DNA from: Candidatus Auribacter fodinae
GTDB lineage: Bacteria > Auribacterota > Auribacteria > Auribacterales > Auribacteraceae
Assembly: GCA_003599815.1 (NCBI GenBank)
Contig: QZJZ01000071.1
Span: forward strand, 1,897-65,896
Length of the DNA: 64,000 nt
Reading direction: 5' to 3'
Shown one piece after another: positions 4,732-15,480 of this stretch. A program made the translations under genes and the position numbers. The notes under the pieces are model-generated. The model was not told the origin of the DNA. It ran no database searches and worked only from the letters and a program-made list of their open reading frames with translations. The stretch's first letter is position 1; each line of letters starts with the position of its first letter.

Positions 4732-5361
4732 TTATTTTTTCCTCGCGGCAAATCCTGCGATCGCGCTGATTATAAGCAGGATCGTTGCAGGTTCCGGAAC
4801 CGGAGGCGCTTCGGTGTATGTAATGTTTATGACCGGGTTAATCCAGTATGTGTATAACTGTCCGCTGTATTCGGTGGCTACGCGCAAGGAATAACCGGAA
4901 TGTGATTTCATTGCTGTTAAATCGGCTTTCAGGTACGCGGTAACATCCTGAACGCTGGTGCCGTAAGGGTTGTTTTCTGTAATCGAAGACACGGAGGCAT
5001 CGAATTCACCGGAAAGGTACGTGCCGTCTTCGTTATCATTCATGGCGTAAAAGTTGTAACTCGCTGAGCCCTGGTCTCCCATAATGTCGCCGAGAACAAA
5101 AGTGGCGCTCTCAATAGAGTTTGCGGTGATTCCCTGACTATATAGTGACTGCAGGCTGTATTCCGCAAAGGCACGGGTTATGGCTCCAACATAAGAATAG
5201 TAGCTGGATATTTTCAGGCTGGGATAATTTGTTCCATTTTGCTCTATTGAGTGCACATACCTGTCAGCATTGCCCAGTGTGATAGTCGCGGCGTTGAGAG
5301 TTAGCGCTGAAAACATGCATACAGCCATTACCACGGTGATAAAAATCGCCTTGAGTTTCAT
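4732..5361 (-). CDS. PEP-CTERM sorting domain protein
   Basis: Signal peptide; C-terminal VPEP + TM helix + RKK. Confidence 0.9.
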   Translation of the reverse strand: MKLKAIFITVVMAVCMFSALTLNAATITLGNADRYVHSIEQNGTNYPSLKISSYYSYVGAITRAFAEYSLQSLYSQGITANSIESATFVLGDIMGDQGSASYNFYAMNDNEDGTYLSGEFDASVSSITENNPYGTSVQDVTAYLKADLTAMKSHSGYSLRVATEYSGQLYTYWINPVINITYTEAPPVPEPATILLIISAIAGFAARKK

Positions 5362-5551
5362 TGATAGTCCCTTTATAAGTATTTGGTTTGGAAAAATGTT
5401 GGTATATTACATTATCGCATGGTTAAGCGTTCTTTTCAACTGGTCGGTAAAAAAATATGTAAATTATTTTTTTGTAAAAAAGGGATGTACTGAGGTATTT
5501 CCAATAAAAATAATTTTTGAAAGTTGAAATTGAGTGGAACTTAAATAAAAA

Positions 5552-5625
5552 TACGCCCGGCGGGAGTCGAACCCACGACACCCGGATTAGGAATCCGGTG
5601 CTCTATCCTACTGAGCTACGGGCGC
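5552..5625 (-). tRNA. tRNA-Arg(CCT), CCA not encoded
   Basis: GCGCCCG/CGGGCGT acceptor, CCGGA-TTCCTAA-TCCGG anticodon arm, GTTCGACTC. Confidence 0.95.
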
Positions 5626-5702
5626 ATTCAGTTGATAAATATTGCTCTTTTTACCAAAAACGGCACAGTTCCGCAAGATAAATCGGTTCTACGTACGATA
5701 TA

Positions 5703-6713
5703 TCACGTCAGCATGAAGAAATCAACGCTTTCCGTGTACCCCGCCTGAACCAGAAAATCCCGTATTTTCCGGCGCGCCCCATCCGCAGACACATAACATA
5801 TCACCGGATACCCCGAATAATCCCGTAACCCTTCAGGAGCAATCACCGGAATGCCGTCGCGGTGTGTGCCGATGATCTTGCGGTCTACATCAACATACGC
5901 GGCGAACTCAATACCGTACGGTTTAAGTAAAGATGAAAACTGCCTCGATTTCCGTTTTGCGCCCCATATCACAACTTTCCCTGAATTTTTCTTGATAAGC
6001 CCGGCAAGGTAATGCGCTTTGCACCGGTGAAAATTGATCAGCGAGTACCGGTCGTCTACTCTTGATAACCGATCCTGCCTGTCGCGCCAGTAATGGAGCA
6101 CTTTCCGCACTTTGCCGAACCGAACGCCAGACCGCAACAGCCGGAGCCATAGGTCGTAATCCTCAGGCCAACCGTGATCCTGATACCCTCCGGCACAACG
6201 GATTGTATCTGTGCGTGTCATTACAGACGGGTGGGCGATAGGCGACTCTACAAACATCTCGCGCCGCATGTCCTCATGCGTGCACAGGCTGTTCAGCCAC
6301 TGCATGTATGCGGAGTAGCCTTCGCGTATGCCGGTTTCCGAGAATTTTTCTACAAGACAGCTCACCACGTCAATATCCGTATTTTTTTCCAGAAAGGCAA
6401 CTTGTTCAGCGAGCCGCTCAGGGTGCATACGGTCGTCAGCGTCCATCCTGGCGATAAACGGGGCACGGGCGGTTTCAATACCGCTGTTGAGCGACGGTAT
6501 AATGCCTTTATTCGTATCATTGCGGATAACCCGTACTCTGGCATCGGACTGGGCGAACCGGCTGACTATGGCAGGTGTACGGTCGGTCGATCCGTCATCA
6601 ACAATGATCAGTTCGAAATCGGACAAAGATTGAGCGAAAACAGAGGAAACCGCCTCAAAAAGAAAGCGCTCCCCGTTATACACAGGGAGCGCCACGGAAA
6701 CTATGGGGTTCAT
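5703..6713 (-). CDS. Glycosyltransferase family 2 with C-terminal Rossmann-like extension
   Basis: PVYNGE, VDDGSTD, RMDADD, PEDYDLW motifs; C-terminal IWGA...YVDVD. Confidence 0.9.
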   Translation of the reverse strand: MNPIVSVALPVYNGERFLFEAVSSVFAQSLSDFELIIVDDGSTDRTPAIVSRFAQSDARVRVIRNDTNKGIIPSLNSGIETARAPFIARMDADDRMHPERLAEQVAFLEKNTDIDVVSCLVEKFSETGIREGYSAYMQWLNSLCTHEDMRREMFVESPIAHPSVMTRTDTIRCAGGYQDHGWPEDYDLWLRLLRSGVRFGKVRKVLHYWRDRQDRLSRVDDRYSLINFHRCKAHYLAGLIKKNSGKVVIWGAKRKSRQFSSLLKPYGIEFAAYVDVDRKIIGTHRDGIPVIAPEGLRDYSGYPVICYVSADGARRKIRDFLVQAGYTESVDFFMLT

Positions 6714-6719
6714 TTGATT

Positions 6720-6929
6720 TTATCGTCCGTACGGGTTCCGTTCGGGCGTGCCTCCGGCATAGCCTTCAGCGGCTCCTTCCGGCACGGACTGAACCACACC
6801 CAGCGCGCCGCCGATAGGCTGTCCCAAATTGTGTGCGGCCTGATGCGGGTCAGCGGCGCATCCGGCAAGTACTGTTAAGAATCCTGTAAGAACAAGCACT
6901 GCAAGTATGCGAATAACCATGTAAGGCAT
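6720..6929 (-). CDS. Small Gly/Ala-rich lipoprotein
   Basis: AAGGAG RBS, LAGC lipobox, 5-6 nt gaps to both neighbours. Confidence 0.75.
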   Translation of the reverse strand: MPYMVIRILAVLVLTGFLTVLAGCAADPHQAAHNLGQPIGGALGVVQSVPEGAAEGYAGGTPERNPYGR

Positions 6930-6934
6930 CTCCT

Positions 6935-7855
6935 TTATTGTCCCCTTACGATATCTTTAGCCTGAAAACCTGACCCGGACACAGCCACGGCTTTCGAGAA
7001 TTTTTCCTGAACGTTGACTACTTCAATCACACCGATTTGCGATGTGTCTGAACCGAGGAGCATACCTGTATCAGGATCAATGAAATCCTCGCCTTTGTGG
7101 AATACGGTAAACTGGTCGCCGACCTGAATTCCGGTGTTGGTTCCGCTGTTAATGATAATCGTATCACCTTGAACAGTAACGACTTTTCCTTCCCACGGAA
7201 TGGCTCTCATTTTCTGAGTGACATAATCAACAGCGTTATCAATGGCGATTTGTGTCGCTTTGCCGAGCGGAGTTTTGGAGAAACCTTCCTGTCCGAACCC
7301 GAATCCACTGCCGGAAAAATCAAATCCGAGCCCGCCTGCTTCGGCGTTACCTTCAACGCGTTGAGAATCAAGCACTTCTCCGGTTGATGTGTCGATCAGG
7401 CGGATAATAACCGCTACATGGGCGGTTTCGCGGTTCATGTTTACGTTGAATCCTCTGATGTTCATCCCTTGTCCGCCGCCTTTTTTGCTTTCGTCGAATT
7501 CAGTGATTGCTCCGCGGATAAGTATTTGAGCGGGAGGCATTTTTCCGATACTTGCGGTTGCTCCTGCTGTGGTAGTCCTGCCGCTCGCGGCGAAATCCTG
7601 TTCCTGCAGGACGGATTCCAGAGCCTGCCGTTCCAGCACGATAAAGTTGCCGGATTGGATCAGCGCGTCGGTCAGCATATCAGCCATACCGTCACCGATT
7701 TCCCATGAGCTGGCGGCTCCGGCTTTATTTTCAAAACTCTCGACAGCGACTAATTTTTTCAAAGCCGTTGCGGCGTAAGCGGGATGAACTGCGGCAACCA
7801 GAACGGCGCCGAGCGCGAGACACATCAATCGTTTTCCAAACTTCATTTTAAACAT
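6935..7855 (-). CDS. CsgG/HfaB-family protein with FlgT C-terminal-like domain
   Basis: VAV..FEN, G.GMADML..AL..SG.F.VLER..L..VL.EQ, G.ITEF; C-terminal GKVV....IIINSG...GI.VGD.F.V...IDPDTG..LG; SPase I-type signal (AYA). Confidence 0.85.
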   Translation of the reverse strand: MFKMKFGKRLMCLALGAVLVAAVHPAYAATALKKLVAVESFENKAGAASSWEIGDGMADMLTDALIQSGNFIVLERQALESVLQEQDFAASGRTTTAGATASIGKMPPAQILIRGAITEFDESKKGGGQGMNIRGFNVNMNRETAHVAVIIRLIDTSTGEVLDSQRVEGNAEAGGLGFDFSGSGFGFGQEGFSKTPLGKATQIAIDNAVDYVTQKMRAIPWEGKVVTVQGDTIIINSGTNTGIQVGDQFTVFHKGEDFIDPDTGMLLGSDTSQIGVIEVVNVQEKFSKAVAVSGSGFQAKDIVRGQ

Positions 7856-7873: not shown

Positions 7874-9082
7874 CTATTCAATATCAAATAACCGTATTTC
7901 AAGACGGTTCGGCGTTTTGGCGGTGAGTTCCACGCCAACAGTAGTGAATTCTTCCAGCCGTTCGTCAAATGTTTTATGTACAGATCCTTCGACGTCAAGG
8001 TCAATCAGCATAATTTCATCCTGAAAACTGCGTTCGTTTATCGACGCGACACCGCGTATCTGTTTCAGCTCGTTTTTAAACAGGCGGCGCCGCGCGCCGT
8101 TTACATTGGATATGACCAGTTGTATGGGAGCTGTATTATAAACGTCACTGCGCCACTGGTCAAGTATGCGGGGCACAAGTGTTTCGGCGAGTTGCACACC
8201 TGCCGCGCCCAGCGCCTGCCGTGCGGCTTCCATTTTGCCTGAACCCTGTCCTTCGCCGGGTTTGCGCCAGTCGCTTTGAGCGTTGGCAGTGGCGATAACC
8301 TGCCCTGTATCAGTATTAACAGCGCGAGCGTTGATCTGAGCCTGATAATAGAAGACCGGCGTGCCGTAGGGCATTGCGGAATCGACAAGGTCTGCGGACG
8401 CCTCGCCGATGATAACCACTTCAGCGCCAAACTGCCTGCCCAGAGCCGCGGCTTTATCGGGATCAGCGTAATTGAGTGCCGCGTCACGTTGTTTTATCAT
8501 TTCGAGCTGTCCTTTGTCGATCATCGGGAAACCTTTGGAGAGCAGTTTCTGTTCCAGCGACGATTGGGCGACACCGCCCTGAACTTGTCCGCCCCAGACC
8601 GGATCGGTCTGGTCGACCATTTCCCTGAAGATGATGATAACGCGGGGATTACCTTTTTCGTTTTTGATGATATTGAGGGCTTTTAAGTCTTTTTCCAGAG
8701 GCGCGAGAGCGACAGCGGCACGCACTCCGATACGATAAATCTGCCCGTCTCCGTTGTTGTCGGAGATAACGGAGTAGTCTGTTACGTATCCTTTTACCTG
8801 AGTATACACTTCGTCGTTGAGGAGCTGAAAGTTTTGTGTCATGGATTCCGAGTCAACGAGGCTCCCCACACCTTGTTCAACAGCCCGCCGCAACGCGCGT
8901 TTTGTCGCTTCGTCGCGGGCACGGAGCAACGCTTCCTGCCCTTCGCCGACAACCGCGGCAATGCCTTCCGCCTCTATCTCTTTCGCGGGTATATCCTGCG
9001 CAAGGAGGGGATTAGGCATGCACAACGGGATGGCAATCAGGCATACGCATGCAAACAGCAATTTCAGTTTATTCAACGACAT
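7874..9082 (-). CDS. Secreted protein with FlgT N-terminal-like domain and CsgG/TolB-N-like middle domain
   Basis: AEG.A...ARDEA...ALRRAVEQGVG..V.S.S...NF.L; AA.LGR..GAEVVI.G; ATG at 9082 overlaps the preceding gene end. Confidence 0.75.
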   Translation of the reverse strand: MSLNKLKLLFACVCLIAIPLCMPNPLLAQDIPAKEIEAEGIAAVVGEGQEALLRARDEATKRALRRAVEQGVGSLVDSESMTQNFQLLNDEVYTQVKGYVTDYSVISDNNGDGQIYRIGVRAAVALAPLEKDLKALNIIKNEKGNPRVIIIFREMVDQTDPVWGGQVQGGVAQSSLEQKLLSKGFPMIDKGQLEMIKQRDAALNYADPDKAAALGRQFGAEVVIIGEASADLVDSAMPYGTPVFYYQAQINARAVNTDTGQVIATANAQSDWRKPGEGQGSGKMEAARQALGAAGVQLAETLVPRILDQWRSDVYNTAPIQLVISNVNGARRRLFKNELKQIRGVASINERSFQDEIMLIDLDVEGSVHKTFDERLEEFTTVGVELTAKTPNRLEIRLFDIE

Positions 9083-9251
9083 AGTTTCTCTCAATTCTTT
9101 GTTCTGTACGTATAGGAACGTTTTTTTCGACTTTGTATGTTCCCGGCGGTAATCCGGTTGATCCGTCTTCGTGATAATAGGTATTGTAGGAGCATCCGGA
9201 AACGAAGGTTCCTAACGCCGCCAGAATTATCAGTACACAGAATGCCCGCAT
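9069..9251 (-). CDS. Micro-lipoprotein 4 (60 aa), VSG|CSYNTYYH...ERNYVVE
   Basis: GGAGG RBS before ATG 9251; lipobox; paralogous motif. Confidence 0.8.
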   Translation of the reverse strand: MRAFCVLIILAALGTFVSGCSYNTYYHEDGSTGLPPGTYKVEKNVPIRTEQRIERNYVVE

Positions 9252-9297
9252 GGTATAATCCTCCAAATATACTATTTAGACCGCGTCTTTCCGGCGG

Positions 9298-9447
9298 TTA
9301 TTCAACAACATAATGTTCGCGGACAACAACGCCTTCGCTCGCCGCTTCTTCTTTTCCGTAATAGTGTTTTTCGTATGTACAACCCATAAGAGCAACGATA
9401 CATACACCCATACAGCATACAACCAGTAACAGACGGTTTGTGTTCAT
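9298..9447 (-). CDS. Micro-lipoprotein 3 (49 aa), LMG|CTYEKHYY...REHYVVE
   Basis: AGAGGGT RBS before ATG 9447; lipobox-like; paralogous motif. Confidence 0.8.
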   Translation of the reverse strand: MNTNRLLLVVCCMGVCIVALMGCTYEKHYYGKEEAASEGVVVREHYVVE

Positions 9448-9490
9448 AATATACCCTCTTTTTTTAAAGACTGGTAAATGTTTCAAAAGT

Positions 9491-9616
9491 TCATTGTCCG
9501 CTTGCGCCGACAGCGGGAGGAGGAACATGATAATATTCGTTATATGTACAGCCGATGATTGTTGTCGCCAGTAACGCGCTGAGCGCGATCACCAACAGCA
9601 GAGTACGCGATGCCAT
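9491..9616 (-). CDS. Micro-lipoprotein 2 (41 aa) MASRTLLLVIALSALLATTIIG|CTYNEYYHVPPPAVGASGQ
   Basis: Manually translated; AAGGAG RBS; missing from ORF track. Confidence 0.8.
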   Translation of the reverse strand: MASRTLLLVIALSALLATTIIGCTYNEYYHVPPPAVGASGQ

Positions 9617-9664
9617 TGTTTTTTCTCCTTGGTAGTTTATTTCGGTACCGCTACATTCAATAGA

Positions 9665-9796
9665 TTAATACCGTTCCTGAGTCCTGAACTCTTCCATACT
9701 GCCGGGGTAATAATGTTCATTGTACGTACAACCGGCAACATACATTACCGCAAGTCCAAGTGCACACAGAAGAATCAGCGTTCGAAACAGTTTCAT
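9665..9796 (-). CDS. Micro-lipoprotein 1 (43 aa) MKLFRTLILLCALGLAVMYVAG|CTYNEHYYPGSMEEFRTQERY
   Basis: Manually translated; AAGGAG RBS; VAGC lipobox; missing from ORF track. Confidence 0.82.
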   Translation of the reverse strand: MKLFRTLILLCALGLAVMYVAGCTYNEHYYPGSMEEFRTQERY

Positions 9797-9903: not shown

Positions 9904-11247
9904 TTATCTGCGTTCCTGCCCGATGAGATACCATAATTCTTCAAGGTCAACCTCAACGGTCACTTCTACACTGCCGTCCTCATTGTAAACCGGCTCGCCG
10001 ATTCTTCGCGCGCCGGAGAGAAATGCGGTTACTTCCGTGCTGACCCGGTCGTCCTGAGTGACATAATCGCGGATAGTTGTTTGTGAATCGATGTTGATTC
10101 CGTATATCTGTTCCACCAGATTCCTGCGCGCGTCGATTTCAGCGGCTCGTTCCGCGTTGACGCGCGCGGCGGGGCCTTGTTCGCCGCGGTACGGCACACC
10201 CACGCCGGTTGCGATGATGGTCTGTCTCGCCCAGTCAGGGACATTGCTCGCCGGAGCCGGGGCAACAGGCTGAGCCTGAACAGGAGGTGTGAAGAAATCG
10301 GATTCGGCTACTGTTCCCGTCCCGGTCGCCTGAATCCGTTTTTTTTCTTTTACATCAATGGTTTTTTCAAAATCCACGGTACGGAAAATGTCACGTTTAA
10401 AGAAATGCTCTTTTTGAACGAGATGCTGCTGCATGGTGGTCAGTTCCTTGACCACATCCTGAATGGTAACCTGCACATCCACTTCAACAATGCCTTCAGG
10501 GTGGTACCTGTACGGGCTGATCTGCTTGATCCCTTTGATAAACGTGTCAAGGTTGGTTCTGACAGTATCGCTTTCAGTGATGAAGTCACGTACATAGGTA
10601 TCGCCGGTGATCTGAAGCCCTTCAACCCGTTCTGCAAGGTTACGCCGCGCGTCGGTCAGGGCGGCGCGTTCCGCTTTGAGCCGCCCTTGTGCGGTAACAT
10701 TATCCCAGCCGGGCATGTTCGCGAAATCTGAATCCTTGTAAGAACCATATGTTCCCGAACCGTTGTCCGAGGATGCCTGAGGCGCGCCGGTGTTAGCAGT
10801 ACCCGTAGCGATAAACTCTTTTTTCACGACATATTCTTTCATTGAGTTTGTTTCAAGCGGCGGCTGGTCGGGCCCGCGGTAATAGCTGATACGTGAAATC
10901 GCTTCCATTACCTGAGCGAGTGTAACCTGCACATCCACTTCAGCGGTGATAGATCCGTCCGTTTCTGTGGTAAACCGTGGTTCGCCGAGCACTTTGGCTC
11001 CCTGAATGAAATCGTCGAAATGCGTGCTGATCTGATCGTTTTCTGACACAAAGTCGCGCACATAGGTGTTGGCGTTGATCTGCAGGCCTTTGATCATCTC
11101 GCTAAGCTGACGGTAGGCGTCCACCTGAGCCGCCCTTTTGACTTTGAGTATCCGCTGAGCGTGTGTTTCCGCTGAGAGCCGGGGCGTCATTGTTCCCGAA
11201 AGTATGCCGATGACGCTGATTACAGTAAGAATTTCAGATATTCTCAT
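9904..11247 (-). CDS. Secreted protein with three tandem LPP20/FlgP-like domains
   Basis: Three copies of RAA..DA.R.L.E...G..I...T.[VI]RD[FY]; signal peptide; AAGGAG RBS. Confidence 0.8.
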   Translation of the reverse strand: MRISEILTVISVIGILSGTMTPRLSAETHAQRILKVKRAAQVDAYRQLSEMIKGLQINANTYVRDFVSENDQISTHFDDFIQGAKVLGEPRFTTETDGSITAEVDVQVTLAQVMEAISRISYYRGPDQPPLETNSMKEYVVKKEFIATGTANTGAPQASSDNGSGTYGSYKDSDFANMPGWDNVTAQGRLKAERAALTDARRNLAERVEGLQITGDTYVRDFITESDTVRTNLDTFIKGIKQISPYRYHPEGIVEVDVQVTIQDVVKELTTMQQHLVQKEHFFKRDIFRTVDFEKTIDVKEKKRIQATGTGTVAESDFFTPPVQAQPVAPAPASNVPDWARQTIIATGVGVPYRGEQGPAARVNAERAAEIDARRNLVEQIYGINIDSQTTIRDYVTQDDRVSTEVTAFLSGARRIGEPVYNEDGSVEVTVEVDLEELWYLIGQERR

Positions 11248-11264: not shown

Positions 11265-11792
11265 TTATTTATTCCATGAGTGCCATTCTTTATAAGAAAC
11301 AAAATCAACATTATTCTGAATCCGTTCGTATTCCTCGGCGGAGATTTCCTGAATCCGTACGCCGTTCTTGATAAAATGGTCGTAAATACGGTCTGTCACA
11401 TTAAAAAAGAGCACCATTTCCACAAATGCTGACTTTTCCGTTTCTGATGTATATTCATCGTACACCGCCGCGCCGCTGAGAAATCCATGTACGGCATATT
11501 CTCCATCCTGTATACTGTTTTGCGATGCGGGCAGTTGCGTTACCAGTTGACGGTAGGCGTCAACCCGCGCCGCCCGTTTTGCCATCAGCCATGCCTGAGA
11601 CCTTGAAAACCGCCTGTTCCCAGTTGCGTTGCCATAACCGGCAACGTGGAGTATCCCGTAGCGGTTGTTCATCAGGTCGGTATATATATTGAGTACCGGA
11701 TCCATGCGGGATGCGGATGATTGCGCGAGGCCGGGCACGGCAAACAGAGAAACTATCACGAATATCAGGCAGGTTCGGTATATAATATTCAT
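11265..11792 (-). CDS. Secreted LPP20/FlgP-like protein (single domain)
   Basis: G.G.......Q..LMAKRAARVDAYRQL; ATG 11792 after AAGGG gives a signal peptide. Confidence 0.7.
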   Translation of the reverse strand: MNIIYRTCLIFVIVSLFAVPGLAQSSASRMDPVLNIYTDLMNNRYGILHVAGYGNATGNRRFSRSQAWLMAKRAARVDAYRQLVTQLPASQNSIQDGEYAVHGFLSGAAVYDEYTSETEKSAFVEMVLFFNVTDRIYDHFIKNGVRIQEISAEEYERIQNNVDFVSYKEWHSWNK

Positions 11793-11928
11793 GAATGTCC
11801 CTTTCTTCAAATTGAACAAAATTGCAATTATGATACCAAATTTATAAAGTACCACTTTTAATTTCTGAAACCAATGCATTTCTTGTTAAGACGTGCGAAA
11901 TAAAAGGTGTATTCGTAAAGATAATGCC

Positions 11929-13299
11929 ATGTCGATGAATGAGAGTAAAAACAGTATCCTGCTGGTGCAGTCGCCGCGTATCTGGCCGAGGCTTCCGCCG
12001 CTTGGGATGGCGGCATTATACGGGTACCTGCGCGCAAACGGGATTGACGTGTCCGTGATGGATGTCAACCAGCGGCTTTATCAGGTTGTTGACGATTCTA
12101 TCAAGCAATTGTGGGAACTGCCTGTCTATCCGGCATTTTCACGGGCGTTATGGGATTTTTTGAATCGTCATCACCCACAGAAAACCGAGTCGCTGATTGA
12201 AGAAATAGCCGGACATCCTGCTCAGGTGATAGGATTTTCTGTCTGGCATAGTTCCCTGCATTTTTCGGTGTCTCTGGCGCAGGCTGTTAAACTTCGTGCA
12301 CCGGAAAAACGGATCGTTGCCGGCGGCCCTGAAGTAACATTGCGGTATCGCGCGAACAAAGATATCACCAATATTTTTTCGTTTGCCGACCTGATTATCG
12401 TTGGCGAAGGCGAAAAAGCATTGTTAAATTATTTAACTAATGGAGCAGATGCGGTAAATAAAATTTGCGTTTCTGATCCGCCTGAAATCCGAACATTGCC
12501 GGCGCCGGATTTTTCAGGATTGAAATCGTATCCTTACCGGTACAGCAGTGCACTGCCGGTGTGGATGTCGAGAGGGTGTATACGAAGGTGCGCGTTTTGC
12601 GCGGAACATACATTGACAGATTCGTTTCGTATGAAGAATCCGCGTACAGTGGTCGATGAACTCCAACACTTTTATTTCCACGACGGCATCTCGCATTTCG
12701 TGTTTTATGATTCGCTGATAAATGGTGACTTACAGATTTTCGAGGAGTTTCTTGACCGGATGGTCCAATCCGCTTTGCCGATCAAGTGGGAAGGACAGGT
12801 GCTGATTCGCCGTGACATGCCTTCCCGTCTTTTTGTAAAAATGAAACAGGCGGGATGTTACAACATGTTTATAGGGCTGGAAAGCGGTTCGAACAGGATA
12901 TTAAAGCTCATGCGCAAAGGGTTTACCACAGAAGACGCAACCCGTTTTTTTCAGTATGCGTATAACGCAGGACTGCATTTTGAAGTGAGCATGATACTCG
13001 GTTTTCCCGGGGAACAGGAAGACGATTTCAGGACAACGATCCGTTTTTTTCAAGATAACGCGTTGATTATTCCCAAACTGGCACAGGCAAACCCGTATAT
13101 TGAGCTCGAGGCATCGCCGATATTCAGGGAAAACGGTATCAGAGGAAGAATTCCGCCTTCTCAGGTTGTACGGCAATGGATAACCGAGCTTGTTGAAACG
13201 TGCAGGCAAAACAATATAGCCGTTACTCCTGCATATATCAATAACCTTACGTTATATGAAGCAGGTTTTGACGCTGTTTCCGGTAAGGTAGTTATGTGA
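11929..13299 (+). CDS. B12-binding domain radical SAM protein
   Basis: PPLG.A.L..YL, GGPE, SRGCIRRCAFC (CxxxCxxC), IGLESGS; start approximate. Confidence 0.9.
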   Translation: MSMNESKNSILLVQSPRIWPRLPPLGMAALYGYLRANGIDVSVMDVNQRLYQVVDDSIKQLWELPVYPAFSRALWDFLNRHHPQKTESLIEEIAGHPAQVIGFSVWHSSLHFSVSLAQAVKLRAPEKRIVAGGPEVTLRYRANKDITNIFSFADLIIVGEGEKALLNYLTNGADAVNKICVSDPPEIRTLPAPDFSGLKSYPYRYSSALPVWMSRGCIRRCAFCAEHTLTDSFRMKNPRTVVDELQHFYFHDGISHFVFYDSLINGDLQIFEEFLDRMVQSALPIKWEGQVLIRRDMPSRLFVKMKQAGCYNMFIGLESGSNRILKLMRKGFTTEDATRFFQYAYNAGLHFEVSMILGFPGEQEDDFRTTIRFFQDNALIIPKLAQANPYIELEASPIFRENGIRGRIPPSQVVRQWITELVETCRQNNIAVTPAYINNLTLYEAGFDAVSGKVVM

Positions 13300-14398
13300 G
13301 GTACGCTTTGAATCGGTCCTTAAAGGCGTGGACGAACTGGGTATTGTCAAACTTAACCGCGTGTTCACGGATTTTGACGTGCGAGAAATCGAGTTTGCGA
13401 GCGTAGAGCACTGCCTGGCATAAGGCGTCTACGGTTTGCTCCTCAAAAAATACGCCTGTAAATTCCTGCGCTCCGGGACGATAGCCGATAACCGTCTCAG
13501 TAGCGCCCCCTTTCTTATAAGCGACAACCGGTTTGCCGCAGCACATCGCTTCAAGCGGAGTGATGCCGAAATCCTCTTCGCCCGGAAAAATAAAAGCCCG
13601 GCACCGCTGGTAATACTGGAGCACCTGCTCATCCGGTAACCAGCCATGGAACACGATTGAATCGCCTGCCATTTTGCGCAGTCGTTTTTCGTCCTGCCCC
13701 GACCCGATGATATGAAGCGGGAACCCGAGCTTGTTGAACGCTTCAATGGCGAGATCAACTTTTTTGTACGGGGCAAGCGCTGATACCATCAGATAAAAAT
13801 CTTCCTGCTGTTCGCTGAGCGTATAGAATGAGCTGTCCACAGGCGGATATATTACAGAAGCGTCCCTGCCGTAATTCCGTTTGATCCGTTTTGCCACATG
13901 CTCGGATATGGCGATAAACTCGTCCACACGGGAATTGGCGGATATGTCCCATGTGCGCAGTTTGCTGAGCATGAGCGGGATAGTGATTTTTTTAAAAAAG
14001 GGCATTGTCTTGAGCGGAAAATACTCGTGGCGCATATCCCATGCATAGCGCATCGGAGTGTAGCAGTAACAGATATGGCGCGCGTGGACTCCGGGCAGTA
14101 CGCCTTTAGCCACGCAATGACTGCTACTGACCACCAAATCAAAATCGCTTAGGTCGAAATTCTCTATCGCCGCTGGAAAAAGCGGCAGGTAGTACCGGTA
14201 CTTGCGCGCAACTCCCGGCAGTTTTTGTATATACGACGTGTGAATCTTATGCGCTTCTATTTCAGGCGACACTTTACCCGGCAGGTGCAGAAGCGTGAAT
14301 ATTTCCGCCTGCGGGAATATCCCGCACAGCAGTTCAAGGCATTTTTCGCCGCCCCGCATACCGGTTAACCAGTCGTGAATCAACGCAACTTTTTTCAT
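13292..14398 (-). CDS. Glycosyltransferase family 4
   Basis: HDWLTGMRGGEK, EEDFGITPLEAM. Confidence 0.92.
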   Translation of the reverse strand: MKKVALIHDWLTGMRGGEKCLELLCGIFPQAEIFTLLHLPGKVSPEIEAHKIHTSYIQKLPGVARKYRYYLPLFPAAIENFDLSDFDLVVSSSHCVAKGVLPGVHARHICYCYTPMRYAWDMRHEYFPLKTMPFFKKITIPLMLSKLRTWDISANSRVDEFIAISEHVAKRIKRNYGRDASVIYPPVDSSFYTLSEQQEDFYLMVSALAPYKKVDLAIEAFNKLGFPLHIIGSGQDEKRLRKMAGDSIVFHGWLPDEQVLQYYQRCRAFIFPGEEDFGITPLEAMCCGKPVVAYKKGGATETVIGYRPGAQEFTGVFFEEQTVDALCQAVLYARKLDFSHVKIREHAVKFDNTQFVHAFKDRFKAYLT

Positions 14399-15480
14399 GA
14401 CAGCATCTCCCTGAATATGGTGAGCAGTTTTTCTGCGGATTTTGGCCACGAATATTTCTTCACCTGTTCAAATCCTTTTTTTTCTAAGCGTTTGCGCAGT
14501 TCGTTGTTTTCAATGGTGTTGTACAGCCCGTCCGCCATGCTGTCAACATCGTTGGGATCAACCGCGGTGTAGGCGTCGCCGAGCACTTCGGGTATGGATG
14601 AACAGTTCGAACTGACTACCGGCACGCCGTGCATCATCGCCTCGACCGGCGGTATGCCGAACCCTTCGTACAGCGATGGAAAGAAGAGCGCCGAGGCGTT
14701 CTCGTACAGCGACAACAGCTCGCCGGGCGGTACGTATTTCATACAGTAGATGTCAGGTATGGACTTCACTTCAGACTGTTTATAAAAGTCTTTGGATATG
14801 CCGACCGCCGCCATCTGGATAAACCTGCCCGTTATGCGGAACCGCGCTTTTGCGTAAGCATGGACTGCATTGATAAAATTTTTGTGCGGCATTTCGTTTC
14901 CCACAAACAGCACATAACCGGGGCGGAGCCCTTCTACGGAACACTGCCTTTTTTGTTCATCAGGAGTGAAACCCGCGTTATACACCACACTGATTTTACC
15001 GGCGTCAACCCGGCATAAACGGGCGATGTCAGCTCGCGAGTTTTCCGAGCAGGTGATTATCCTGTCAGCTTTGCGCGCGAGGGGCTTTACTATAAAACGG
15101 TAATACGGTTTGTATTTGAATGGGAAAAACGCAGGGAATATCATTGGTATAAGATCATGTATATGGACAAGGACAGGGCACGGCGCGAAATACGGCGCGG
15201 TGAATGTCGGGCTGTAAAACAGGTCCGGTTTCAGCGTATTAAGTACACGGGGCAGGTCAATCTGTTCGCGCAGGGAATAGAGTTTCGCGTCTGTCATATA
15301 CAGGGAGACATTGGATTTTACCGGCAGTATGGCATCGCAATAGTCGTTGGCGCACAGGATGGTATAGCGATGATCGTCATCAAGCGCCAGCAGGTGTTTT
15401 AATAGCTGTTCACTGACACGCGAAATACCGTGTACACGTCCGTCGCACACGCGCGCGTCTATTATAATATGTTTGGGCAT
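14395..15480 (-). CDS. Glycosyltransferase family 4 (mannosyltransferase-like)
   Basis: [21 protein letters not shown]. Confidence 0.92.

Follow-up and report, generated by a model that had tools for sequence, protein, structure and literature searches.

Conserved Tyr/His-Rich Micro-Lipoproteins Encoded Beside a FlgT-Like Gene in Candidatus Auribacter fodinae, Possible Lipid Anchors Acting in Trans

We have analyzed a stretch of 64,000 nucleotides from Candidatus Auribacter fodinae (contig QZJZ01000071.1, positions 1,897 to 65,896 of the forward strand), referred to below as the window, that encodes on its minus strand a tandem set of four Tyr/His-rich lipoprotein precursors, immediately upstream of a gene for a protein related to FlgT. 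Comparison of related genomes establishes at the sequence level that the four open reading frames (ORFs) are genuine genes of three orthologous types, A (duplicated), B and C, that are conserved and syntenic, and Pfam, NCBIfam, source annotations and literature searches gave no description of the family that they form. As to function, we consider it an even call whether the peptides serve as trans-acting lipid anchors or adaptors, a proposal built on analogy with the small lipoprotein PflE of Campylobacter jejuni and with the FlgT ring of Vibrio cholerae.

Proteins of fewer than 50 amino acids (aa) are routinely missed in annotation, and here a whole set of them is conserved within an envelope operon in at least two phyla. 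The peptides are short and testable, their tail motif and a candidate partner for it being defined, and they belong to a widespread and uncharacterized FlgT-like/FlgP-like/CsgG-like module in non-flagellated bacteria that bears on the origin of flagellar accessory rings.

Results and Discussion

Four Micro-Lipoprotein Genes

The original prediction, made from the letters of the window, described four consecutive minus-strand ORFs of 43, 41, 49 and 60 aa, each with a ribosome-binding site, a hydrophobic signal ending in xGC and a Tyr/His-rich start of the mature peptide, a description that the sequence bears out (Table 1). Shine-Dalgarno sites AGGAG, AGGAG, GAGGG and GGAGG lie 6-8 nucleotides (nt) 5' of the four ATG codons (types A, A, B and C, respectively), and the lipobox cysteines, residues 23, 23, 23 and 20, agree with the mature lengths that had been given. 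For type B the start used here is an ATG with a Shine-Dalgarno site, and the ORF list extends the same frame to 76 aa; for type C that list gives 65 aa, counted from an upstream TTG. The mature peptide of the first A copy begins with the head CTYNEHYY and continues in a variable tail ending in ERY, and that of the second begins with CTYNEYYH. Type B starts with CTYEKHYY and has the tail ...EGVVVREHYVVE, which makes it a member of the wider VV[EQKR]-tail family considered below, while type C combines a CSYNTYYH head, a PPGxY.x.K...P middle motif and an ERNYVVE tail. Two of the four C-termini are YVVE and one is ERY, as noted originally, and the overlap of the last ORF with the next gene is likewise real, the 3' end of type C covering the ATG (9082) of the FlgT-like gene by 14 nt.

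Table 1. Positions, counted from the first letter of the window, of the features discussed. SPI, signal peptidase I.
Feature	Position	Strand	Remarks
Micro-lipoprotein type A, copy 1	9665-9796	-	Precursor 43 aa, mature 21 aa; AGGAG upstream
Micro-lipoprotein type A, copy 2	9491-9616	-	Precursor 41 aa, mature 19 aa
Micro-lipoprotein type B	9298-9447	-	Precursor 49 aa, mature 27 aa; Tyr/His head
Micro-lipoprotein type C	9069-9251	-	Precursor 60 aa, mature 41 aa
FlgT-like periplasmic protein	7874-9082	-	402 aa, three domains; SPI-type signal, no lipobox
LPP20 (FlgP-family) protein (LPP20x3)	9904-11247	-	447 aa; Pfam LPP20 E 1.4e-16; SPI-type signal, no lipobox
Single LPP20-like protein	11265-11879	-	204 aa; SPI-type signal, no lipobox; first gene of apparent operon
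CsgG-family protein with FlgT_C domain	6935-7855	-	306 aa; Pfam E 1.9e-42; SPI-type signal, no lipobox
Type D small lipoprotein	6720-6920	-	66-aa precursor, LAGC lipobox, 46-aa mature peptide ending NPYGR
GT2 glycosyltransferase	5703-6713	-	Ends operon
B12-binding radical SAM protein	11893-13299	+	Divergent from operon
PEP-CTERM protein	4732-5361	-
GT4 glycosyltransferase	13292-14449	-
tRNA-Glu(CTC)	2541-2615	-
tRNA-Gln(CTG)	2654-2726	-
tRNA-Arg(CCT)	5551-5626	-	Just downstream of GT2 gene

All four signal peptides carry K or R within the first 5 residues, followed by 13-17 uncharged and mostly hydrophobic residues before the lipobox. The lipoboxes VAGC, IIGC and VSGC fit the consensus [LVI][ASTVI][GAS]C, as quoted in bioRxiv 10.1101/2025.04.02.646747; that of type B, LMGC, is off consensus at -2, and its orthologues have IAGC, VAGC, VSGC or ITGC. 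Calls of lipoboxes and of signal peptidase II (SPII) signals were made throughout by regular expressions and rules, and by such rules the four precursors have both the signal and the lipobox of a bacterial lipoprotein (Sec/SPII, Lgt-LspA). The genes for Lgt (PF01790, E 7.8e-60) and signal peptidase II (PF01252, E 2.5e-41) are adjacent on contig C7 of the genome from which the window derives, and the peptides would probably be lipidated by the Sec/SPII route. A regular-expression scan of the window finds 5 small lipobox ORFs, compared with a mean of 2.36 (standard deviation 1.52) in 100 shuffled sequences. The motif C[TS]Yxx[HY]Y is carried by 4 of these 5 and by none in any of the 100 shuffles, so that the observed motif-bearing ORFs are beyond what is expected by chance.

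Conservation and Selection

A hidden Markov model (HMM) of the four peptides, a search proposed in the original prediction, matches only these four in the window's own genome and finds 2-3 tandem copies in 5 of the 6 further genomes of its family, drawn from five other genera. (G, L and f numbers are our handles for genomes, loci and families; the window's genome is G000 and its family f1.) Types A, B and C occur in fixed order and with the same context in G001, G003, G005 and G006, and G002 has A and B only. Type A (∼41 aa, a head plus a short variable tail) has orthologues in 5 other f1 genomes, each relative having a single A, so the second copy is a duplicate specific to the window's genome. 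Across the family loci type B (∼49 aa) ends in ...DEGVVVxExYVVE and type C (∼60 aa) has a body of the PPGDYELK...P.SKEKVVERHYVVE type; the overlap between the end of C and the start of the FlgT-like gene recurs in G001, G003 and G006.

In an alignment of 18 family members M1, G22, C23, Y25 and Y29 are invariant, the lipobox G-C thus being kept in 18/18, and the signal peptides vary freely but stay hydrophobic. Differences at third codon positions equal or exceed those at first and second positions in 46/46 orthologue pairs, with synonymous sites mostly saturated, and for the closest pair, G006 versus G003, the ratio of nonsynonymous to synonymous substitution rates (dN/dS) is 0.35 for A, 0.27 for B and 0.14 for C. 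Judged by these patterns the peptides are under purifying selection. The head shared by the four paralogues of the window is encoded by different synonymous codons, which argues that it has been kept by selection on the protein and rules out gene conversion as its source.

A profile search of 1.84 billion representative proteins gave 19 matches at E up to 0.001, all of 39-61 aa and all of type A, B or C, aligned from the first residue (two from residue 2 or 4); among them the second A copy is present in identical form (P0015), and the first differs from its representative, P0009, by one residue. That the ORFs are untranslated chance frames in intergenic DNA is scarcely credible: they are very short, and no RNA or protein evidence exists for them, but conservation at the protein level over 6 genera, saturated synonymous sites, dN/dS below 1, Shine-Dalgarno sites, the empty shuffle control and 19 full-length library matches all speak against it. 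No RNA run was found among the sequencing runs that hold the locus, the 6 runs with part of the stretch all being DNA from sludge or groundwater metagenomes.

The proposal that these paralogues form a family of no described kind has held up. Searches of the four peptides against Pfam and NCBIfam returned nothing above cut-off; the match of type C to the NCBIfam model 'invert_tail' (18.1 bits, cut-off 37) is noise, since it and the other sub-cut-off matches cover the signal peptide. None of the papers listed by literature searches describes these peptides or the module in Auribacterota or Verrucomicrobiota; in one search the 12 listed of 6,890 matching papers contain neither FlgT nor LPP20. PMC9324843 makes no mention of CsgG, curli, LPP20, lipoprotein or FlgT.

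The Operon and Its Large Proteins

On the minus strand the genes follow in the order LPP20-like, LPP20x3, A, A, B, C, FlgT-like, CsgG/FlgT_C-like, type D and GT2 (glycosyltransferase family 2), and no minus-strand terminator-like site was found between 7910 and 11900. The 'x3' of LPP20x3 is a reading of the sequence, Pfam passing 2 stretches; homologues of this protein are present in 7/7 family f1 genomes. The 204-aa LPP20-like protein has no match in a Pfam scan and is related to the 447-aa protein by BLASTP (E 4e-06).

The Pfam FlgT_N match of the 402-aa protein is weak. Its AlphaFold2 model (predicted local distance difference test score, pLDDT, 73.7) was compared by Foldseek with known structures and matches 8z5n_0, a FlgT chain of the Vibrio LPHT ring, with E 7.5e-12 over 394 columns, and 3w1e, the crystal structure of FlgT, with E 2.1e-10; whole-chain template modeling (TM) scores are just 0.30-0.38, and the domain orientation differs. 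For the middle domain the next matches in the PDB are GNA1162, CsgG, PelC and HpaA. On the strength of the model the protein has the three-domain fold of FlgT and is FlgT-like over its full length. The relationship to FlgT that had been read from the sequence is in this way upheld, but not its restriction to the N domain. An identity as LipL46 was rejected (NCBIfam 34 bits versus a cut-off of 400).

The CsgG-like protein aligns to residues 60-176 of E. coli CsgG and is encoded by the sole CsgG-family gene found in the window's genome, which is 91.6% complete; in G001, G003 and G006 there is a second CsgG paralogue of lipidated type, with a lipobox. The four large proteins (LPP20-like, LPP20x3, FlgT-like and CsgG-like) are related to ring-forming proteins associated with the outer membrane, and all have ordinary signal peptides without a lipobox. 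By comparison, CsgG and GNA1162 are lipoproteins according to the titles of their PDB entries, and FlgP and FlgO of V. cholerae are lipidated (bioRxiv 10.64898/2025.12.02.691832).

The type D lipoprotein, which was absent from the original prediction, sits between the CsgG-like and GT2 genes and is not paralogous to A-C. It matches no Pfam or NCBIfam family. In G001, G003, G006 and G008 the gene directly follows the last CsgG-like one, and the product is conserved with 44-52% identity.

The VV[EQKR] Tail Tracks the FlgT-like Gene

The related genomes belong to Candidatus Auribacterota, and homologues of the FlgT-like protein are found also in Verrucomicrobiota, Omnitrophota, a metagenome-assembled genome (MAG) of Planctomycetia and Thermodesulfobacteriota/'Deltaproteobacteria'. 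Among 79 Auribacterota genomes 37 have the FlgT-like gene, and at 26 of 30 Auribacterota FlgT-like loci one or more small lipoproteins lie just upstream: 22 loci emerged from a first scan, with one to four such proteins each, and 4 more from a relaxed scan. The upstream peptides differ in their heads, and nearly all end in E-x-x-V-V-[EQKR] (alignment A5). In Verrucomicrobiota 7 of 8 loci have a B-like lipoprotein of 44-45 aa directly upstream of the FlgT-like gene; at the remaining locus the upstream sequence is just 77 nt long, and a further locus, L112 (1083 nt), was left out. The flanking ORFs there are, by reading only, unlike those of the Auribacterota operon. Five Verrucomicrobiota genomes have CsgG and LPP20x3 matches elsewhere and none in the 3-kb flanks of the pair, and because the pair stands there without CsgG or LPP20 nearby we take the core unit to be a micro-lipoprotein plus a FlgT-like gene. 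To judge from these alignments, it is the C-terminal VV[EQKR] tail that is kept from phylum to phylum, and the Tyr/His head is specific to one family.

A search of 5.8 billion proteins with the A5 profile gave 56 small proteins (41-80 aa) without Pfam domains; those named in their sources are each a 'hypothetical protein' and once a 'flagellin-like protein'. Tail-inclusive A5 matches, defined as those that extend at least to profile position 48, were obtained in 27 of the 79 genomes, all within the 37 that are positive for the FlgT-like gene and in 0 of the 42 that are negative.

Two natural losses within family f1 point, at the sequence level, to the same link. In G002 (78% complete) a divergent LPP20x3 homologue (33% identity) is followed by A and by a B that is without the YVVE end, and no C, FlgT-like or CsgG gene was found. 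In G004 (99% complete) no FlgT-like gene was found; this genome keeps LPP20-like, LPP20x2, a 71-aa lipoprotein, CsgG/FlgT_C and GT2, and the 71-aa protein shares the middle motif of type C but lacks both the Tyr/His head and the VVE tail.

These distributions also bear on whether the peptides could be small envelope lipoproteins of independent function whose genes just happen to lie in the operon, either membrane-active or stress peptides of the entericidin kind or His/Tyr peptides responsive to metal or pH. Entericidins A and B are tandem paralogous lipoprotein precursors of 40-50 aa that form amphipathic helices with a toxin/antidote role, and they are not known to have a Tyr/His head or a VVE tail. 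Type A, with just a lipid, a Tyr/His head and a variable tail, would suit such a role, His-rich heads recur independently in family f10, and in G002 types A and B persist in the absence of FlgT-like and CsgG genes. Against this, the position in the operon is strictly conserved over two phyla, type C overlaps the start of the FlgT-like gene, the tail is lost along with that gene, and even in G002 the peptides still adjoin the divergent LPP20 homologue; we regard independence as quite improbable.

A further reading, the main one of the original prediction, makes the peptides substrates, plugs or subunits of a CsgG-type channel, which would polymerize after export or sit in the barrel as does the N-terminus of CsgF. 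The operon does include a CsgG-family gene, aligned with E. coli CsgG over the residues given above, in G004 the C-like lipoprotein directly precedes the CsgG-like gene in the absence of a FlgT-like one, type D always follows the last CsgG-like gene, and the tails of B and C are rich in β-branched residues. The curli pair CsgG-CsgF (PDB 6l7a, 6lqh) provides a parallel, in that a CsgG-family protein is encoded together with short accessory polypeptides. In the Verrucomicrobiota, however, the gene found beside that of the B-like peptide is the FlgT-like one, with no CsgG gene within the 3-kb flanks, and in general it is the FlgT-like gene, not CsgG, that the tail tracks. The window's CsgG-like protein lacks the lipid anchor of canonical CsgG, and the Pfam matches of the peptides include no CsgF or curlin repeat, even at E up to 10. 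A secreted, polymerizing cargo such as that of curli would not be expected to bear a lipid anchor, nor is CsgF known to be a lipoprotein. We therefore think this reading unlikely. Of the roles first suggested in connection with the adjacent channel, that of adaptor matches the reading that we prefer, with the FlgT-like protein in place of CsgG as the partner; for a plug, a polymerizing cargo or an amyloid we find no support.

Other upstream lipoproteins deserve mention. At loci L061, L063, L066, L082 and L085 of family f10 His-rich heads of the HEHH, HHH and EEHH types stand right after the lipid-bearing Cys, and a metal- or pH-related role for such a recurring His/Tyr-rich interfacial segment is, from its composition, conceivable. 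Loci L050-L053, L056, L057, L059 and L106 of family f11, together with L049 (G058), encode small lipoproteins of three kinds (46-49, 55-62 and 79-122 aa) between the LPP20x3-like and FlgT-like genes. A VV[EQHR] end is limited to the first and third kinds; the second has a GW-containing core, terminates in K, E, R or DD and is another unannotated family. Finally, the only strong A5 match in a genome without the FlgT-like gene (L120:1377-1931, minus strand, in G051 of family f2) is the N-terminal linker of a 184-aa lipoprotein that, from its sequence and a large neighboring ORF, we take to be Pal beside TolB. The stretch after its Cys resembles the B-type peptides of f11, a likeness that could be chance or a hint at the origin of the peptides.

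Lipoboxes and Flagella

At the 39 loci surveyed, the FlgT-like and first CsgG-like proteins are all without a lipobox wherever peptides are present, and the three FlgT-like proteins that are flagged for a lipobox (L101, L102 and L115) have no upstream peptide. At deltaproteobacterial loci lipoboxes are found on GNA1162-like neighbors (confirmed by Pfam for L107 only), on tetratricopeptide repeat (TPR) proteins or on CsgG-like ones. The Omnitrophota loci fit only partly, and for this reason the complementarity between peptides and lipoboxes is a trend and not a rule.

The window's genome is that of a flagellated organism, with FlgI, FliF and 17 flagellin matches. The latter (Flagellin_N) lie on contigs C51, C16 and C2 of G000 with a run of 10 on C51, an unusually large array of flagellin genes. 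The FlgT and LPHT ring folds and the flagellated host suggest a flagellar accessory, but as a general role this is rejected, most carriers of the module lacking FlgI: it is present in 15 of the 79 Auribacterota genomes and absent from 24 of the 37 with the FlgT-like gene, including all of f11 (8), f5 (6) and f10 (4). Among five Verrucomicrobiota genomes one has FlgI and four have no match, and PMC9324843 reports flagella in just one Auribacterota MAG. Gene content thus indicates that the module is not a flagellar part in most of the genomes carrying it, and since consistent co-occurrence with flagellar genes is not found we refer to the protein as FlgT-like and not as FlgT.

A Proposed Model for Anchoring in Trans

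Two flagellar systems provide the basis for our proposal. PflE of C. jejuni (Cj0978c) is a lipoprotein of 57 aa with a mature peptide of 41 aa, and its lipobox Cys is needed for the stability and outer-membrane localization of the LPP20-family disk protein FlgP, whose own Cys is dispensable; a PflE-FlgP fusion restores motility, and the only FlgP proteins with a predicted lipobox are those of Helicobacter species that lack PflE (bioRxiv 10.1101/2025.04.02.646747). In V. cholerae the FlgT ring, itself not lipidated, is kept beneath the outer membrane by two lipoproteins, FlgP and FlgO, and FlgP's C-terminal loop inserts in the clefts between FlgT subunits (bioRxiv 10.64898/2025.12.02.691832). 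As with PflE, the present operon has very small lipoproteins beside an LPP20/FlgP-family ring protein without a functional lipobox, and in the window the peptides occur in a genome whose ring proteins lack one; the trend across loci that was described above resembles the complementary occurrence, from species to species, of PflE and of a lipobox on the large protein. PflE, however, is a single flagellar gene, whereas the present module is mostly non-flagellar and encodes 4-5 peptides of several types, and the strongest link is to the FlgT-like gene in place of the LPP20/FlgP protein (PflE being compared by its description only). With the Vibrio H-ring the operon shares a non-lipidated protein of FlgT fold, an LPP20/FlgP-family protein and, as proposed here, lipid anchors on partners. 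In Vibrio, anchor and tail are parts of folded domains (FlgP, FlgO); here LPP20 has no lipobox, and anchor and tail would reside on a free peptide of 19-41 residues. Nor is there the dependence on flagella of the Vibrio ring, as the 24 of 37 carriers without FlgI attest.

Because the operon has the same folds without lipoboxes, together with free peptides that carry a lipid site and a tail, we propose that the peptides supply lipid anchors in trans to ring-type proteins that have no lipobox and so would tether the assembly to the outer membrane. The FlgT-like protein would be the docking partner of the VV[EQKR] tails: the β-prone tail of B and C, ...E-x-x-V-V-E-COOH, might dock on it, possibly in clefts between ring subunits, and contacts with the membrane surface, or with LPP20x3 and the CsgG-like protein, might be made by the Tyr/His-rich head that adjoins the lipid and by type C's middle motif. 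We infer lipidation, localization, binding and anchoring alike. If anchoring of this kind does take place, PflE would no longer be the sole known case, and the separation of anchor and ring protein would be a general design outside flagella. We would place the peptides among the small trans-acting lipoproteins of PflE or pilotin type, here in a new and largely non-flagellar context. A scheme with one peptide per LPP20 repeat was rejected, as f5 loci have an LPP20x3 homologue of similar length (415-428 aa; repeats uncounted) and a single peptide.

Several points weigh against this proposal. Type A has no VVE tail, so that the docking model does not explain it, and the YVVE codons of type C overlap the start codon of the FlgT-like gene, which could place an additional constraint on the tail. 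The FlgT-like loci L068, L070 and L071 have no small lipoprotein in either scan (the remaining one, L069, has just 75 nt of sequence upstream of the gene), and 10 genomes with the FlgT-like gene, from families f12, f6, f14, f13 and f9, have no tail-inclusive A5 match. The 27/0 co-occurrence overstates the independent support, because peptide and FlgT-like genes are neighbors and the genomes are related. Omnitrophota loci have no peptides, and a large protein has a lipobox in only some of them. A 1:1 complex prediction for FlgT-like residues 29-402 with type C residues 20-60 scored 0.00 versus a mark of 0.32 in a calculation without controls; we count it neither for nor against binding, and if the tail docks between ring subunits such a 1:1 model would miss it. 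The precedent is itself open in mechanism, its authors having been unable to demonstrate a PflE-FlgP interaction and having located PflE mostly in the inner membrane (bioRxiv 10.1101/2025.04.02.646747).

The last point leads to a closely related alternative, a pilotin-like or chaperone role in which the peptides would bind transiently to non-lipidated ring proteins, stabilize them and deliver them to the outer membrane without remaining as permanent anchors. Small lipoprotein pilotins, located in the outer membrane and serving a larger oligomer, assist secretin rings, and shuttling or stabilization is considered by the authors of the PflE work, with PflE mostly in the inner membrane and without assignable density (bioRxiv 10.1101/2025.04.02.646747). 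The linkage to the FlgT-like gene fits equally well, and sequence data cannot tell a pilotin from an anchor. Pilotins, however, are folded proteins of ∼100 aa or more with no known Tyr/His head or VVE tail, 3-5 different peptides per operon seem many for a transient pilot, and the overlap with the start of the FlgT-like gene suggests coupled, near-stoichiometric synthesis. A pilotin-like role is in our opinion unlikely.

Anchoring in trans can be extended to a more far-reaching picture that we hold only tentatively and think improbable as a whole. The free lipopeptides A, B, C and D would provide the whole membrane attachment of a non-flagellar, FlgT/FlgP/CsgG-like periplasmic ring machine in Auribacterota and Verrucomicrobiota, each consisting of a lipid, a Tyr/His cluster (possibly responsive to metal or pH) and a docking tail, and the machine might be related, as a free-standing form and perhaps as a forerunner, to the H-ring or basal disk of flagella and to anchoring of the PflE type.

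Neighboring Genes

Upstream of the operon and divergent from it lies a gene for a B12-binding radical S-adenosylmethionine (SAM) enzyme, which raises the question of whether the peptides could be precursors of ribosomally synthesized and post-translationally modified peptides (RiPPs), in which the hydrophobic N-terminus would act as leader or signal and the Tyr/His core would be modified by this enzyme before export. Among NCBIfam models it matches 'RiPP maturation radical SAM C-methyltransferase' (TIGR03975) best, and an ORF of similar size is found at the same place in G003 and G006, a likeness in size and position only. The match, though, is of 110 bits against a cut-off of 282 and, falling below every NCBIfam cut-off, points to a generic B12-binding radical SAM protein; the peptides have canonical lipoboxes with an invariant G-C, the enzyme gene is on the opposite strand, and no such neighbor was seen at the inspected Verrucomicrobiota or other Auribacterota loci, so that there is no consistent co-occurrence. 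A RiPP pathway is very unlikely indeed.

The operon is flanked by genes for a PEP-CTERM protein and for GT2 and GT4 (family 4) glycosyltransferases, which suggests an exopolysaccharide or cell-surface neighborhood. Three tRNA genes, for Glu, Gln and Arg, lie on the same strand beyond the GT2 end.

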